From positions 112,883 through 176,882 of the forward strand of contig JACZUI010000001.1 in assembly GCA_022573225.1 (NCBI GenBank): a DNA stretch of 64,000 nt, read 5' to 3'. Position 1 is the first letter of the stretch. Each line of letters opens with the position of its first letter. Source of the stretch: Acidobacteriota bacterium. Its GTDB lineage: Bacteria > Actinomycetota > Acidimicrobiia > Spongiisociales > ZC4RG35. Shown piece by piece: positions 1 to 50,358 of this stretch. Below the pieces are notes generated by a model that saw nothing but the letters and a program-made list of their open reading frames with translations, did not search any database and was not told where the DNA came from. The translations under genes and the position numbers were made by a program.

Positions 1-330
1 GGGCCGCGAGATGAGTCTCGGATCGTTCTCGTCGGCAAACCCGAGTGGGGTGATGGCACGATCGCGCTCGGGATCGGACAAGATCGGAAACGTGAGGGCC
101 AGCTTCTCCATCACCGCCGCGTTCTGCTCAGGGGAGTCCGAGCTCAGTGCGAAGACTCTGGCGCCATGGTCGAGAAACTCCTGGTGCATGGTTGCGATGG
201 CGGCCAACTGGCCGTGGCAATAGCTTCAGAAGTCGCCCCGATGGAAGGTGATGACGGCAGCGGCGTCGCGATGATCGGAAAGGGCCCAGGGTTGGCCAGC
301 CGCGTCGAGCACGGTGAAATCGACTGTCAC
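1..330 (-). CDS. AhpC/TSA (redoxin/peroxiredoxin-like) thiol oxidoreductase, candidate selenoprotein; 3' end runs off the window
   Basis: GTG start at 330 preceded by AAGGAGAG. Translation is VTVDFTVLDAAGQPWALSDHRDAAAVITFHRGDF-TGA-SYCHGQLAAIATMHQEF...FALSSDSPEQNAAVMEKLALTFPILSDPERD. The TGA (226-228) sits where the first Cys of the RGxWCPxC motif is expected. The frame stays open and family-like to position 1. Confidence 0.6.
192..220 (-). promoter_or_regulatory. candidate bacterial SECIS hairpin downstream of the in-frame UGA
   Basis: The mRNA reads UGA AGCUAUUGCCA CGGCC AGUU GGCCG. A 5-bp GC stem with AGUU loop begins 11 nt after the UGA. A lower stem UUGC/GCAA flanks an internal loop. Confidence 0.4.
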
Positions 331-365
331 TAACTCTCCTTGGTCTCGGGTACCCCATTGTTAGC

Positions 366-1013
366 GTGCCGGCTCCCATGTTCATTCCTTTTGGCGGCGA
401 AAGGTTGCCGCGCAGATTCATCCAGCTGATCGCAGGTCTGGTGATGTTCGGCGTCGGAATCGGTCTGATGCTCCAGTCGGGGCTGGGGGTACCACCATGG
501 GATGTCCTCCATCAGGGTCTGGCCGAGAGATTCGGACTCTCCGTGGGGATATGGTCGATCCTCGTCTCGGTGGCGGTGCTTCTTCTCTGGCTGCCGTTGC
601 GAGAGCCCTATGGAATCGGCACGCTTCTCAACGCGATAATCGTCGGCGTTCTCATCGACGTAACGGTTGTGGTGGTTCCCCAGCCGGGGCCTTCATGGCT
701 CGCCTGGGCGATGCAGGTCGGCGGGATCTTGATGATCGGACTGGCTTCAGGCATGTACATCGGAGCCAACCTTGGCCCGGGTCCCCGCGATGGATTGATG
801 ACCGGCATCGCCCGACGAGGTCCTTCGATACGGCTGACTCGCTCGCTTATCGAGGTCACCGTGCTGGCGATCGGCTGGCTGCTGGGGGGAAGCTTCGGGA
901 TCGGAACGGTCCTGTTTGCTCTGGCAATCGGGCCCTTGGTCCAATTTTTCCTCCCAAGATGGACCATAGGAGCCCAAGCATCTGAGGACGCCTGGACCCA
1001 TCCCGCCCGCTGA
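366..1013 (+). CDS. integral membrane protein, YczE/YitT-like
   Basis: 215-aa ORF with multiple hydrophobic helices and the motif GLGVPPWDVLHQGL. The start is GTG 366 or ATG 378. Confidence 0.55.
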   Translation: MPAPMFIPFGGERLPRRFIQLIAGLVMFGVGIGLMLQSGLGVPPWDVLHQGLAERFGLSVGIWSILVSVAVLLLWLPLREPYGIGTLLNAIIVGVLIDVTVVVVPQPGPSWLAWAMQVGGILMIGLASGMYIGANLGPGPRDGLMTGIARRGPSIRLTRSLIEVTVLAIGWLLGGSFGIGTVLFALAIGPLVQFFLPRWTIGAQASEDAWTHPAR

Positions 1014-1095
1014 AATCGTCGTCGAGCACGATGATTTTGCTCCCCCCAAATCCTGTGCTGCACCGGCAACTCCGAGGCGCGCTAACTTTCAGCTC

Positions 1096-1968
1096 GTGGA
1101 AAGACCCGATTGGTTCAACGAGGACCTCTATCCCTTTGAAAGCCATTGGCAGGAAGTCAACGGTGCCCAGGTTCACTATCTGGATGAAGGCGAGGGCCCG
1201 ACCCTGCTGATGCTTCATGGCAATCCGACATGGTCGTTCCTCTACCGGAGGATGGTGCCGTACCTGAGCGATCGGTTCCGCTGCATCGCTCTCGACTACC
1301 CCGGGTTCGGCCTCTCGACGGCGCCGGATGGATACGGCTTCACACCGGCCGAGCATGCCTCCACCGTGAGCGGCCTCATCGACGCCTTGGGTCTTGACGA
1401 GTTCACGCCCATCATGCAGGACTGGGGAGGGCCGATCGGTCTGTCCGTTGCGCTCGACCGCCCAGATCAGATCAAGGCCATCATCCTCGGCAACACCTGG
1501 GCGTGGCCTCAGACCGACGCGTTGACCCAACGGTTCGCCTCCGCCCTCGGTGAGGGCCGCACGGGCGAGTTCCTTGTCGATCGGGCCAACGTCTTCGTCA
1601 ATGTGTTCTTGCGCAGGGCGATGAGACGCCGCAGCCCGTCCGGACGCGAGATGGACATGTGGCGCGGCCCGTTCCTCGAGCGGGATTCTCGGATTGCGGT
1701 GCGGGTCATGCCCCGTGAGCTGACAGGTTCAGCCGACTTCCTTTCCGACATCGAGGCCCGCCTTGGCGAGATCGCCGATCGGCCGTCGCTGCTCTTCTGG
1801 GCGGATCAGGATCCGACGTTTCGTGGAGCCGACAAGAGAAGGTGGGAGACGATCCTTTCCAACCGGCGCACCTACATCCTCCGTCACGCCGGCCACTTCT
1901 GGCAAGACGATGCCGGGCCCGAGGCCTCACTGATGATTCGCTATTGGTGGGACCAAACCTTTACCTGA
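1096..1968 (+). CDS. alpha/beta hydrolase, haloalkane dehalogenase-like
   Basis: Contains LMLHGNPTWSFLYR and QDWGGPIG (Asp nucleophile elbow), with a C-terminal GHFWQDD. Confidence 0.75.
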   Translation: MERPDWFNEDLYPFESHWQEVNGAQVHYLDEGEGPTLLMLHGNPTWSFLYRRMVPYLSDRFRCIALDYPGFGLSTAPDGYGFTPAEHASTVSGLIDALGLDEFTPIMQDWGGPIGLSVALDRPDQIKAIILGNTWAWPQTDALTQRFASALGEGRTGEFLVDRANVFVNVFLRRAMRRRSPSGREMDMWRGPFLERDSRIAVRVMPRELTGSADFLSDIEARLGEIADRPSLLFWADQDPTFRGADKRRWETILSNRRTYILRHAGHFWQDDAGPEASLMIRYWWDQTFT

Positions 1969-2349: not shown

Positions 2350-5300
2350 ATGAACAAGGGCCTACGGATAACCCGTCGCTTCACCAAGGCCGGAACCGAT
2401 CCCTACGACCAGATGGACTGGTCGCGCCGGGATTCCCGAATCACCAACCCAGACGGCTCAATTGTCTTTGAGATGACCGATGCCGAGATTCCGGCGAGCT
2501 GGTCGCAAATCGCTTCGGACATCATGGTGTCCAAGTACTTCCGCAAGGCGGGCGTCCCCCAATTCGATGGAGACGGAAGCCAGATTTTCGATGACGAAGG
2601 ACAACCGGTTCTCGGGACGGAGCACTCCGCCAAGCAGGTCTTCGATCGTCTCGCCAGCACCTGGCGGCACTGGGGCGAGAAAGAGAGTTACTTCGACTCA
2701 GCCGAGGATGCCGACGCCTTCGAGGACGAACTCAAATACATGCTCGCCAGCCAGGTGGCGGCGCCCAACTCACCGCAATGGTTCAACACCGGCCTCCACA
2801 ACGCATACGGGCTCACCGGCCCGGCTCAGGGATTCTGGTACGTCGACGGGGCCGACGGGCAGATGAAAGCCTCCCCCGATTCCTACAGCCGTCCCTCCCC
2901 CCACGCCTGTTTCATCCTGTCCGTGAAGGACGATCTGGTGAACCCGGGCGGAATCATGGATCTCTGGGTCAGAGAGGCTCGGATCTTCAAGTTCGGCTCC
3001 GGCGCCGGATCCAACTTCTCCTCCATCCGAGGAGAGAACGAGCGACTCTCAGGCGGAGGCAAGTCCTCCGGTGTCATGTCGTTTCTCAAGATCGGTGACC
3101 GCGCCGCCGGCGCGATCAAGTCGGGTGGCACCACTCGTCGCGCCGCCAAAATGGTGATTCTCGACGTCGACCATCCAGACATCGAGAAGTTCGTCGAGTG
3201 GAAAAAGGTCGAGGAGGACAAGGCCAAGCTGCTCATCAACCACGGTGGCTTCCCCGCTGATTTCAATGGCGAGGCTTATGCCACTGTCTCGGGGCAGAAC
3301 TCCAACAACTCGGTCCGCATCAACAACGATTTCGTGAAGGCAGTGGAGAGTGACGATGACTGGGATCTGATAAATCGGACCGACGGGTCGGTTCGCAAGA
3401 CGATCAAGGCCCGCGATCTGTGGACCACGATCGCAGAAGCCGCCTGGTCCTGTGCCGATCCTGGCCTTCAGTTCGACTCCACCATCAACGAGTGGCACAC
3501 CAGTCCGGCGGGTGGCCGAATTCGGGCGTCTAACCCATGTTCGGAATACCTTTTCTTGGACGACACGGCCTGCAATCTCGCATCGTTGAATCTGGTGAAG
3601 TTCTACGACGATCAATCCGGGGTCTTCGATATCGAGGCCTACCAGCATGCGATCCGGCTCTGGACGATCGTGCTCGAGATCTCGGTGGCCATGGCCCACT
3701 TCCCCTCCCGTGAGATTGCACAAGGCTCCTACGACTACCGGACTCTCGGGCTTGGCTACGCCAATCTCGGTTCACTGCTGATGCGTCAGGGCATCGCCTA
3801 TGACAGTGATGAGGGTCGGGCGATCGCCGGTGGGCTCACCTCGGTTCTCACCGGCTATTCGTATGCGACCTCGGCCGAGATCGCCGGCGTCACCGGGCCA
3901 TTCCCCAAGTACTCGGAGAACCGGGAATCCATGTTGAGAGTCATCCGGAACCACCGGAGGGCGGCCTACGACGACAAGGACTTTGAGGGCGTCACAACCA
4001 GAGTCATGGGCATCGACACCGACCTTTGCCCCGCCGACTTGCTCCAGGCCGCCCGCACCTCGTGGGACCTTGCGCTCGAGCGTGGCGAGGCCGACGGATA
4101 TCGCAACGCACAGGCCAGTGTTTTAGCGCCAACTGGAACAATTGGGTTGCTCATGGATTGTGACACCACCGGCGTCGAGCCTGACTTCGCCCTGGTGAAG
4201 TTCAAGAAGCTGGCCGGCGGCGGGTACTTCAAGATCGTGAACAAGTCGGTGGCGCCCGCCCTTGCCCGGCTGGGGTACCAACCTCAGGACATCAAGGATG
4301 TTGTCGAGTACATCGTGGGAACAAGCTCACTCGATGGAGCCCCGAACATCAACCGGGAGTCCCTGGTCGACAAGGGCTTCGACGACGAGGACCTGGCCAA
4401 GCTCGCGTCGGCACTTCCGTCGGTCTTCGACCTGAAGCACGCCTTCAACGTGTTCACCTTTGGTGAGGAGACGCTCCAGCGAATCGGGTTCGACGTGGGC
4501 AAGTACACCTCGTGGGACTTCAACCTTCTCAAGGCTCTCGGATTCAGCAGCCGGGAGATAGCCGAGGCCAACGACCACATCTGTGGCCGTCAGACCATCG
4601 AGGGCGCCCCGCATGTGAAGGATGAGGACCTAGAGATTTTCGACACCGCCAACAAGAACGGCAAGTACGGAACGCGATTCATCCATCACAACGGTCACAT
4701 CATGATGATGGCTGCGGCCCAGCCGTTCATCTCGGGTGCAATCTCGAAGACCATCAATATGCCTGAGGAGGTCACTCCGGAAGACATCGAGGGGGCCTAC
4801 CGACTGTCGTGGGAGCTCGGTCTCAAGGCGATGGCCATATACCGGGACGGCTCCAAGGCCGTACAGCCTCTCAACTCGGTTGCCGACGAGGGTGACGACG
4901 CCGAAGTCGAAGACGCCGCGATCACACTGGCGGTCGAGGCTGAGAAGGCGATTCACTGGGGCAGTCTGCCGGTTGGGATCTCACCGACCCAGGCATACGC
5001 CCGCGGGATGAAGCCGCCCCGGTTCCTGTTGCCTGCCCGGCGCGCCGGGTACAACCAGGAGGCCCGTGTCGGCGGTCACAAGATCTATATGCGCACCGGC
5101 GAGTACGACGACGGGACGCTTGGTGAGATCTTCATCGACCTGGCCAAGGAGGGCGCGACCCTGAAGGGGATCCTCTCCTGTTTCTCCATCGCGATCTCCA
5201 AGGGCCTCCAATACGGAGTGCCGTTGGAGGAGTTTGTCGACACCTTCACCTTCCAAACCTTCGAGCCGAGAGGCATGGTGGAGGGTCACGAGAACATCAA

Positions 5301-5751
5301 GATGGCCAACTCCATAATCGACTATGTGTTCCGCGCTCTCGGTGTCGAATACCTCCAACGCGACGAGTTGGCGCAGGTGCCACCGATCCGGGATGGCGTG
5401 CTGGCCAGCCCGCCCAAGGGCCTGGCTGCTGAAATGGGCATCCAACTCGACTTGACCGATGCCGCCGCGGAGGACGACGTGGCTGTCGTGCAGCGGGCCG
5501 CCGCTTTCGTGGACGGGTCAAACGAATCAGCCCCTGTGGTCTCCGAGAGGGAGGTCATGGTCTCCGAGACGGAGGTAATCGTGGTTGAGAAGCAGACCGT
5601 TGCAGTCGCAGCGGGCACAACCACGGTCGACATGGCACTCTCAGAGAACATGGGTGATGCGCCGGTCTGCTCCAACTGCGGACACATGACGATCCGTAAC
5701 GGCAGCTGCTATGTCTGTCTCACCTGCGGAGACACCACCGGTTGCAGCTGA
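2350..5751 (+). CDS. nrdJ: class II (adenosylcobalamin-dependent) ribonucleotide reductase
   Basis: 1133 aa. Active-site region is SNPCSEYLFLDDTACNLASLNL. The C-terminal Cys cluster is CSNCGHMTIRNGSCYVCLTCG. Confidence 0.95.
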   Translation: MNKGLRITRRFTKAGTDPYDQMDWSRRDSRITNPDGSIVFEMTDAEIPASWSQIASDIMVSKYFRKAGVPQFDGDGSQIFDDEGQPVLGTEHSAKQVFDRLASTWRHWGEKESYFDSAEDADAFEDELKYMLASQVAAPNSPQWFNTGLHNAYGLTGPAQGFWYVDGADGQMKASPDSYSRPSPHACFILSVKDDLVNPGGIMDLWVREARIFKFGSGAGSNFSSIRGENERLSGGGKSSGVMSFLKIGDRAAGAIKSGGTTRRAAKMVILDVDHPDIEKFVEWKKVEEDKAKLLINHGGFPADFNGEAYATVSGQNSNNSVRINNDFVKAVESDDDWDLINRTDGSVRKTIKARDLWTTIAEAAWSCADPGLQFDSTINEWHTSPAGGRIRASNPCSEYLFLDDTACNLASLNLVKFYDDQSGVFDIEAYQHAIRLWTIVLEISVAMAHFPSREIAQGSYDYRTLGLGYANLGSLLMRQGIAYDSDEGRAIAGGLTSVLTGYSYATSAEIAGVTGPFPKYSENRESMLRVIRNHRRAAYDDKDFEGVTTRVMGIDTDLCPADLLQAARTSWDLALERGEADGYRNAQASVLAPTGTIGLLMDCDTTGVEPDFALVKFKKLAGGGYFKIVNKSVAPALARLGYQPQDIKDVVEYIVGTSSLDGAPNINRESLVDKGFDDEDLAKLASALPSVFDLKHAFNVFTFGEETLQRIGFDVGKYTSWDFNLLKALGFSSREIAEANDHICGRQTIEGAPHVKDEDLEIFDTANKNGKYGTRFIHHNGHIMMMAAAQPFISGAISKTINMPEEVTPEDIEGAYRLSWELGLKAMAIYRDGSKAVQPLNSVADEGDDAEVEDAAITLAVEAEKAIHWGSLPVGISPTQAYARGMKPPRFLLPARRAGYNQEARVGGHKIYMRTGEYDDGTLGEIFIDLAKEGATLKGILSCFSIAISKGLQYGVPLEEFVDTFTFQTFEPRGMVEGHENIKMANSIIDYVFRALGVEYLQRDELAQVPPIRDGVLASPPKGLAAEMGIQLDLTDAAAEDDVAVVQRAAAFVDGSNESAPVVSEREVMVSETEVIVVEKQTVAVAAGTTTVDMALSENMGDAPVCSNCGHMTIRNGSCYVCLTCGDTTGCS

Positions 5752-45165: not shown

Positions 45166-45687
45166 TTGACGATGGATGAATTGACCAGGGCCCTCTCGAC
45201 AGATCTCGAAGCAGCCTTCCCCGACCTCGTCACTGCCATGGGCGCAAGGTTGTTCTGGGGTCTGCGGGGCATGTGCAGAGATCATCAGGAAGCCGAAGAC
45301 CTCACCCAAGAGACCTTCATACGTGCATACAAGGCTCTCGACGGATACGACCGGGAGCGAGTGCGGGAGCTGCAACTGTCGCCGTGGATATGGACGATCG
45401 CCCTCAATCTCGGTCGCAATCACATACGGAATCGGGCACGCCGACCGAGCTTCGTTGCATTGCGGGACGAGGCGGTGGACGATCCGGAACTGCCCGACAG
45501 CGCGGCATGGGACCGAAGGTTCGCCGTCCTGAACGGCCATCAGAAGACCGCCGTGGTCCTTCGCCATGTCGTCGGGCTGGGGATCGCTGAGATCTCGCAG
45601 GCGGCCGGCCGACCCGAGGGGACCGTAAAGGCCGACATCCACCGGGGCCTGGAACGACTACGACGAACTATGGAGCAGGAGACATGA
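45166..45687 (+). CDS. ECF-type RNA polymerase sigma factor
   Basis: Region 2 is EDLTQETFIRAYKAL..WIWTIALNLGRN. Region 4 is TAVVLRHVVGLGIAEISQAAGRPEGTVKADIHRGLERLR. ATG 45172 is an alternative start. Confidence 0.85.
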   Translation: MTMDELTRALSTDLEAAFPDLVTAMGARLFWGLRGMCRDHQEAEDLTQETFIRAYKALDGYDRERVRELQLSPWIWTIALNLGRNHIRNRARRPSFVALRDEAVDDPELPDSAAWDRRFAVLNGHQKTAVVLRHVVGLGIAEISQAAGRPEGTVKADIHRGLERLRRTMEQET

Positions 45688-49581: not shown

Positions 49582-50358
49582 ATGGCAGATGTGATCCCGG
49601 TTGATGAAGATCAACTCCGTTTGGAAATCCAAAAGCACTACGCCGAGGTAGCGGATAGCCCTGACCATGAGTTCCACTTCCACACTGGTCGGGACGCCGC
49701 CCGACGGGTCGGTTACGACGAAGCCGTCATCAAGGACATACCTGATGACGTGATCGCTTCCTTTGCTGGGGTGGCCCACCCGTTCCATTTCGGTTTGCCA
49801 AAGCCAGGGGAGACGGTTCTCGATGTCGGCTCTGGAGCAGGTGTCGACGTCATCATCGCCGCCAAAGCAGTCGGCCCCGAAGGCCGGGTTATCGGTGTCG
49901 ACATGACACCCGAAATGCTCGACGCCGCTCGCCGTAACACCGAACGGATGGGGTTGGACAACGTCGAGTTCAGAAAAGGCCTAGTTGAACGTCTCCCCGT
50001 GGACGCCGAGTCGATCGACCTTGTCATCTCGAACGGTGTACTCAATCTCATGGTCGACAAGCACGGTGCCTACAGGCAGATCGCCCGTGCTCTCAAACCG
50101 GGTGGCCGTCTCCAGATCGCTGATATCTGCGTAGACAGGCCAGTTTCCGATAGTGCGAAACGGAACATCGATCTCTGGACTGGCTGAATTGCCGGTGCCC
50201 TGCCGTGTGCAGGGTGGGAAACGGTCATCACAGCCGTCGGATTCATCGATCTGGAATTCGGGCCGAGCGTCGACACCTACGGTGGAGCCTTAGGTGAGAA
50301 GAACGCCAGACTGTTCGGGACCTGGGGCTACCCGTTCCGAGCCCACAAACCTCTCTAA
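49582..50358 (+). CDS. SAM-dependent methyltransferase (ArsM/UbiE-like), candidate selenoprotein with in-frame TGA at 50185-50187
   Basis: SAM motif VLDVGSGAGVDV. The text reads ...RNIDLWTG-TGA-IAGALPCAGWETVITAVGFIDLEF...FGTWGYPFRAHKPL*. The TGA aligns with the Cys of the family motif LWxGC(I/V)xGA. A further 56 sense codons of family-like sequence follow before the TAA at 50356. Confidence 0.6.
50198..50214 (+). promoter_or_regulatory. candidate bacterial SECIS hairpin
   Basis: UGA AUUGCCGGUG CCCUGC-CGUGU-GCAGGG. A 6-bp stem with a GU-containing loop starts 10 nt after the UGA. Confidence 0.4.

Follow-up and report, generated by a model that had tools for sequence, protein, structure and literature searches.

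A redoxin-family reading frame at the left edge of the window, by which we mean the whole 64,000-nt stretch of DNA analyzed here, runs into an in-frame TGA exactly where a redox-active residue is expected, raising the question of whether this codon ends translation or is decoded as selenocysteine (Sec), and what kind of protein would be made. We consider it highly probable that the left edge carries the first 110 codons of a 224-codon gene encoding a Sec-containing, peroxiredoxin (Prx)-fold thiol/selenol redox protein of an uncultured marine-sediment bacterium of the Acidimicrobiia, the TGA at codon 35 almost certainly being read as Sec, as predicted from the sequence. The observation made in the initial annotation is thus confirmed and its interpretation is supported.

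The reading frame and the conservation of its TGA

The 5' part of the gene (codons 1-110 of 224; positions 1..330, minus strand) is open through the TGA and the remaining codons lie beyond the left edge of the window. The GTG start codon at 328..330 (minus strand) is the codon at which 20 of 20 aligned homologs begin, with ATG, GTG or TTG, and direct reading revealed a Shine-Dalgarno-like ribosome-binding site, AAGGAGAG, at 334..341 of the same strand; the homologs carry purine-rich GGAG-type motifs 5' of their starts. Read through the TGA at 226..228 (minus strand; codon 35, the predicted Sec and the U of a UxxC centre), the frame gives 110 codons open to the window edge, ...VTVDFTVLDAAGQPWALSDHRDAAAVITFHRGDF-U-SYCHGQLAAI..., in which the TGC at 217..219 (minus strand) specifies Cys38, which completes the UxxC centre and does not vary among Sec and Cys homologs. 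The predicted tryptic peptide across position 35 is GDF-U-SYCHGQLAAIATMHQEFLDHGAR. The ribosome-binding site, the GTG start at 330, the in-frame TGA and the open frame had all been described on the minus strand by the initial annotation, and all were found in place.

The fragment in the window matches Pfam AhpC-TSA (PF00578; 7.8e-21, 74.7 bits against a cut-off of 26), and the frame also matches Pfam Redoxin (1.2e-10). The 3' end, which the initial annotation had proposed to recover by extending the contig, was obtained from Logan contig L001, which is 99.2% identical to window positions 1-1229 without gaps, has an identical 110-codon translation and contains a full gene of 224 codons encoding 224 residues; the full-length protein scores 73.3 bits against AhpC-TSA (cut-off 26). 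Alignment of 20 redoxin genes, each of 224 codons except one of 227, was gapless. Pairwise differences in codons 2-34, i.e. ahead of the TGA, were 0.19/0.15/0.51 at codon positions 1/2/3, showing coding periodicity, and these codons are more constrained than codons 48-224 (0.28/0.22/0.57), while in the 60 nt 5' of the start the differences were ~0.69 at all positions. A metatranscriptome contig covers window positions 178-324 including the TGA, which suggests that the region is transcribed and is silent on decoding.

Among related loci, the TGA occupies codon 35 in every one of 18 GTDB species genomes (59-92% identity), nearly all of them Acidimicrobiia metagenome-assembled genomes (MAGs), and in 51 of 51 family members on metagenome contigs; overall it is kept in 69 of 69 related loci at 59-97% identity. 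The independent, 99.2% identical contig L001 retains it as well. Contigs from four runs belonging to four separate marine-sediment studies cover positions 1-700 at 10-22x depth and carry no difference at 226-228 and no indel, so that the sense codon or indel which, according to the initial annotation, resequencing might uncover was absent from all four.

To look beyond the TGA-containing genes, we searched 1.84 billion cluster representatives exhaustively with HMMER, which returned full-length relatives of 217-257 residues at 28-43% identity. Cys stands in the TGA column of 12 of the 13 full-length homologs (at least 90%), as the initial annotation had anticipated for a genuine Sec position, and C38 is invariant. 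The motif of the Cys homologs is (Y/H)RGDWC(P/S/A)(Y/F/W)CNGQL, e.g. RGDWCPYC, the column being exemplified by RGDWCPYCNGQL. Judged from this alignment, the column is a classical Sec/Cys pair. Among further matches at 37-47% identity many are gene calls truncated at the N-terminus. Two of these, on contigs L085 (3860-4543) and L087 (1190-1861), contain a TGA within the motif RGDW-U-PYC at 41-46% identity, and their public gene calls are split into a 35-codon ORF and a fragment of 178-180 residues; predicted Sec use in the family therefore extends beyond the Acidimicrobiia clade studied here.

Elsewhere in the window TGA serves as an ordinary stop, indeed the most frequent one: 19 of the 29 Pfam-supported genes end with it. 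The redoxin gene's own stop is TAA in 18 of 20 loci (L001 and 19 others), a codon that ends 1 of the 29 Pfam-supported window genes; the true terminator of the redoxin gene seems to avoid TGA.

Predicted fold, active site and related families

AlphaFold2 modelling from a 32-sequence alignment (pLDDT 94, pTM 0.91) predicts that residues 1-145 adopt a Prx/thioredoxin-like fold, in which Sec35 caps the N-terminus of helix 36-47 (alpha1), whose first turn contains Cys38, and that residues ~170-223 form two long helices arranged as a C-terminal hairpin. Foldseek matched ~150 residues of the model to Bcp4 (3hjp; E 3.8e-11, TM 0.86 on the target), AhpE (1xxu, 5c04; TM 0.86), other peroxiredoxins and ResA. 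The helical C-terminal hairpin found no fold match in the PDB by Foldseek, and the C-terminal 79 residues match no Pfam family.

The modelled core thus resembles BCP/PrxQ and AhpE (3hjp, 1xxu/5c04) in fold (TM 0.86, rmsd 1.5-1.8 A over ~150 residues) and in the placement of Cys38 at the peroxidatic Cys, but differs in having Sec in place of the catalytic Thr, Arg in place of the motif Pro, a catalytic Arg that is not strictly kept and an added C-terminal helical hairpin, at a sequence identity of ~21-23%. In the HMMER alignment, FHRGDF-U-SYC lies over FHPLAFTGIC of Mycobacterium tuberculosis AhpE (5c04), such that U35 takes the position of the catalytic Thr, Arg31 that of the motif Pro and C38 that of the peroxidatic Cys45. 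The Prx signature PxxxTxxC is accordingly changed, Pro to Arg31 and Thr to Sec35, in all 20 aligned members. The motif RD(Y/F)ADRP (129-134) is invariant in Sec and Cys forms. R109, the candidate catalytic Arg, falls one residue off the catalytic Arg of Bcp4 in the HMMER alignment. Among the Sec members, L015 (on the complete Acidimicrobiia chromosome OZ244163.1) and L019 have another residue there, as do about half of the Cys homologs.

These features bear on whether the protein, as a genuine selenoprotein, acts as a peroxidase rather than as a thiol:disulfide oxidoreductase. A peroxidase role would accord with the fast reaction of selenols with peroxides, with a fold nearest to the BCP/PrxQ and AhpE peroxiredoxins, with Cys38 at the peroxidatic position and with an Arg (R109) that in most Sec members is at most one residue from the Prx catalytic Arg. 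Nevertheless, PxxxTxxC is lost throughout the family, R109 is missing in several Sec members as well as in the Cys homologs mentioned, and the literature groups UxxC Prx-like proteins apart from the TxxU peroxiredoxins (PMC1088965); we therefore regard a peroxidase as unlikely, though it is the best of the alternatives. Since Sec takes the position that the catalytic Thr has in true peroxiredoxins, the centre is predicted to be a thioredoxin-like UxxC rather than a Prx peroxidatic site, and the modelled protein more probably acts as a thiol:disulfide (selenenylsulfide) oxidoreductase than as a classical peroxidase. Sec35 and Cys38 would form a thioredoxin-like U-x-x-C centre cycling between selenol/thiol and selenenylsulfide. 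The name 'peroxiredoxin' given by the initial annotation is therefore too strong.

Proteins of this kind have been predicted before. Selenoproteins that combine a Prx-like PF00578 domain with a UxxC motif form an established family of predicted proteins (PMC1088965, PMC2398784, PMC9312934), and Prx-like thiol:disulfide oxidoreductase selenoproteins ('Prx-like protein', 'Prx-like 1'; pfam00578, UxxC/UxxU) were first predicted in Geobacter and then in Sargasso Sea/GOS metagenomes (PMC1088965, PMC2398784, PMC9312934, PMC13188914), the GOS survey having an entry Prx-like 1, pfam00578, UxxC (PMC2398784). [quoted passage not shown] It is distinguished by its 224 residues with a two-helix C-terminal hairpin and an invariant RD(Y/F)ADRP (the Geobacter form being compared by description), by its confinement to Acidimicrobiia as far as seen and by its place at the head of a lutABC operon. 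Neither the two-helix hairpin nor the RD(Y/F)ADRP motif has a match in Pfam or the PDB. Selenoproteins of this kind have been known since 2004-2005, and the find is real but ordinary.

Among curated models, the top NCBIfam hit over the N-terminal 90 residues is NF040769, SelL-related redox protein (1.5e-12), which stands for relatives of PRX-like2/SelL and is similar in having a CxxC/UxxC-type Prx-like fold, with the redox centre covered by the match. Membership was rejected: the score of 47.5 bits is far under the cut-off of 120, and with residues 3-90 aligned to model positions 4-93 of 173 half of the model is matched. No curated NCBIfam model names the redoxin clade.

The stem-loop downstream of the TGA and the reading of codon 35

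Bacterial SECIS elements lie within the coding sequence; that of E. coli fdhF, which is bound by SelB, is a stem-loop starting 11 nt after the UGA with a small apical loop carrying a G and then a U. A SECIS-like stem-loop is found at 192..220 (minus strand), as detected by synonymous-codon constraint and pairing fraction. Its upper stem pairs CGGCC (214-210) with GGCCG (205-201), starting 11 nt after the UGA, its apical loop AGUU (209-206) begins 16 nt after the UGA and its lower stem pairs UUGC (220-217) with GCAA (195-192), all on the minus strand; the hairpin CGGCC-AGUU-GGCCG, its 11-nt spacing and the lower stem are exactly as the initial annotation had drawn them. Like the fdhF element it is intragenic, starts 11 nt past the UGA and has a small loop with G then U; it differs in sequence, in its shorter upper stem (5-6 bp) and in its 4-nt loop, and here SelB binding is putative.

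Conservation at the nucleotide level was assessed in the 20 genes. Whereas mean pairwise synonymous-codon identity over the whole gene is 0.52, codons 39-43 (CAC GGC CAG TTG GCC), from which the hairpin is built, reach 1.0, 1.0, 1.0, 1.0 and 0.9, and the eight most constrained 12-codon windows of the gene all start within codons 32-39. The codon for Leu42 is invariantly TTG, which makes up 15% of Leu codons elsewhere in these genes. The 11-pair structure is paired in 87% of cells across 59 sequences, compared with at most 55% in slid registers. Base-pair covariation in the same 59 sequences did not exceed that of shuffles because the upper stem never varies, and the case for a SECIS therefore rests on the synonymous-site constraint. 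The single-sequence fold energy of the region is ordinary (z = -0.5). Rfam searches at the gathering cut-offs and down to E <= 10 matched neither a SECIS nor any other family; according to a recent preprint, Rfam covers bacterial SECIS elements poorly (bioRxiv 10.64898/2026.04.03.716425). By relaxed criteria, a comparable downstream hairpin follows 27 of the 2062 TGA trinucleotides in the window (1.3%), and therefore the hairpin alone proves nothing; it is raised above chance by conservation, with the TGA present in all related loci and the hairpin codons near-invariant. The Cys homologs encode the G-Q-L peptide with CTC or CTG and have no common hairpin at this site, and the distant Sec members (RGDW-U-PYC) have in the same place a hairpin of another sequence with the loop GGUC. 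The gene is a clean example of a SECIS detectable by suppressed synonymous variation alone.

We infer that the UGA at codon 35 would direct Sec insertion in a SelB-dependent manner: the stem-loop 11 nt downstream would present its small G/U-containing apical loop ~16 nt after the UGA and, in the manner of bacterial SECIS elements, bring in SelB with its bound Sec-tRNA(Sec). The factors themselves were sought in the available DNA. ARAGORN scans of the window and of 555 kb of related loci gave no tRNA-Sec, a Pfam scan of 30 larger ORFs of the window gave no SelA, SelB or SelD, and selA, selB and selD were not found in the 555 kb. Within the same class, the Sec machinery is reported in all 84 complete genomes of the genus Actinomarina (Actinomarinales; bioRxiv 10.64898/2026.04.03.716425).

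Another in-frame TGA occurs at 50185-50187 (plus strand) in a gene for an ArsM-like SAM methyltransferase that ends at 50358. It occupies a conserved Cys position, the frame reading ...NIDLWTG-U-IAGALPCAGW..., and a hairpin CCTGC-CGTGT-GCAGG follows 11 nt downstream, spaced as in the redoxin gene. The initial annotation had counted the redoxin as a second Sec candidate within the same 64 kb, and both can indeed be seen. Together with the Actinomarina genomes, the methyltransferase TGA lends indirect support to a Sec-decoding trait. With the redoxin gene one selenoprotein is added to a lineage apparently rich in them.

The UGA could also be recoded or read through as an amino acid other than Sec, e.g. 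as Cys or Trp by a near-cognate or dedicated suppressor tRNA, with the hairpin serving as a read-through stimulator. Such a reading fits the failure to find Sec machinery in the window and the 555 kb of related loci, and the hairpin evidence being conservation and not covariation; we nevertheless consider it very improbable, given that the UGA coincides exactly with the first, redox-active Cys of a CxxC centre, the typical place for Sec/Cys exchange, that family and motif agree with a long-known selenoprotein family (PMC1088965, PMC2398784), that hairpin spacing and G/U loop agree with the bacterial SECIS pattern, that the window holds another UGA at a Cys position with an equally spaced hairpin, and that TGA is the commonest normal stop there.

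Another reading is suggested by the public gene calls. All of the ~120 homologs listed in a database of 5.8 billion proteins start just after the TGA; the listed calls have 150-190 residues and begin at varying internal codons. If the TGA were a true stop in a split or decaying gene, the functional product would be the downstream ORF of ~177-183 residues starting at an internal ATG or TTG, and indeed internal start codons are present and every public gene call seen has the truncated form. Yet according to the model such a product would be devoid of beta strands 1-3 and of the entire UxxC centre of the Trx fold, the internal 'starts' vary between homologs (MAAIA, MHQEF, MAQRH or MFALS), purifying selection acts more strongly on codons 2-34 than on the remainder of the gene, TGA and frame are kept in 69 of 69 loci across a bacterial class, and the Cys homologs are single full-length chains, leaving a split gene extremely improbable. 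Three further explanations were ruled out: sequencing error, as the TGA is present in 69 of 69 loci and unchanged in four independent studies; a pseudogene, as TGA and frame are conserved and codons 2-34 have coding periodicity; and genome-wide reassignment of TGA, as it is the stop of 19 of 29 Pfam-supported genes in the window.

With codon 35 read as predicted Sec, the public calls are truncated versions of the redoxin gene that lack the active site. Given these truncated calls and the want of an NCBIfam model covering the protein, annotation pipelines will go on missing the selenoprotein, which is present in most sampled Acidimicrobiia of sediments and soils; the main value of the find is practical, in correcting a systematic mis-annotation.

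Position ahead of lutABC and possible partnership

Inspection of the loci with enough downstream sequence showed that lutA, encoding a protein with two CCG domains, follows within 400 nt in 50 of 57, its start typically 9-12 nt past the redoxin stop, and that lutB and lutC come after lutA, co-directional and closely spaced with the redoxin gene. The redoxin gene is thus the first of a prxU-lutA-lutB-lutC operon. In the strain of the window, too, it leads into lutA: a contig of run X1 (2619 nt, depth 15.3) matches the window perfectly and also lies on the 92%-identical contig L006, where it spans the whole redoxin gene and ~250 nt of lutA. On the other side, a divergent gene for a yczE-like membrane protein (366..1013, plus strand; NCBIfam NF052291 YczE, 239 bits, cut-off 205) adjoins the redoxin gene in 50 of the 55 loci that extend far enough upstream.

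Neither five Cys homologs nor the two distant Sec homologs (L085 and L087) adjoin lutABC; as these relatives stand in other contexts, the lutABC link is specific to the Acidimicrobiia clade, and the idea that it is older than the Sec clade was rejected on the same grounds.

LutA has HdrB-type CCG domains, which are heterodisulfide-reducing in methanogens, and its physiological electron partner is unknown (PMC3924224). It is conceivable, and in our estimate decidedly doubtful, that the Acidimicrobiia selenoprotein belongs to the lactate-oxidising LutABC system as a dedicated fourth member. In such a scheme electrons could pass between LutA and the Sec35-Cys38 selenenylsulfide, docking could fall to the C-terminal helical hairpin that has no match, and synthesis of LutABC might depend on ribosomes finishing the selenoprotein and hence on selenium supply. 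Gene order in one class is what suggests that there may be a redox partnership with LutABC, and a full-text literature search found no paper linking lutABC with a selenoprotein of this kind.

Translational coupling was considered from the junction itself. lutA has no Shine-Dalgarno sequence (L004:6539-6570, L067:3287-3318 and 40 other loci), and the C-rich spacer between redoxin and lutA shows complementarity to GAGGGGCC in codons 2-3 of lutA; pairing would place the AUG in a hairpin loop. A lutA start 9-12 nt past the stop, devoid of a Shine-Dalgarno sequence and within a C-run/G-run hairpin, therefore makes it possible that LutABC is coupled to translation of the selenoprotein. Pairing in the fixed register (61.5%) was no better than in a slid register (69.8%), and therefore a regulatory hairpin or translational coupling is unproven. 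The conserved place ahead of lutABC is nonetheless a testable hint at the redox partner of LutABC.

Several further features of the neighbourhood were recorded. An alpha/beta hydrolase gene (window 1096-1968, plus strand) recurs in many loci 5' of the yczE/redoxin pair, and a gene for a class II (B12-dependent) ribonucleotide reductase with a TSCPD domain (window 2350-5751, plus strand) is a recurrent neighbour beyond yczE. ARAGORN called an 84-nt tRNA-Gln(CTG) at 45492-45575 (minus strand) inside a coding region; an Rfam search at gathering level finds no tRNA in the window, and the call is probably false. In one sub-clade a gene for a 486-residue aldehyde dehydrogenase lies between redoxin and lutA (L032:3702-5162; also L030, L031, L034 and L072), and lutA and lutB are separated in L002 and L007 by an AHSA1/glyoxalase-like gene. 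L006 (CAXMPS010000163.1) and L012 (CAXMMT010000007.1), labelled Gammaproteobacteria and Boseongicola (Alphaproteobacteria), respectively, have the usual Acidimicrobiia synteny, and both contigs are probably mis-binned.
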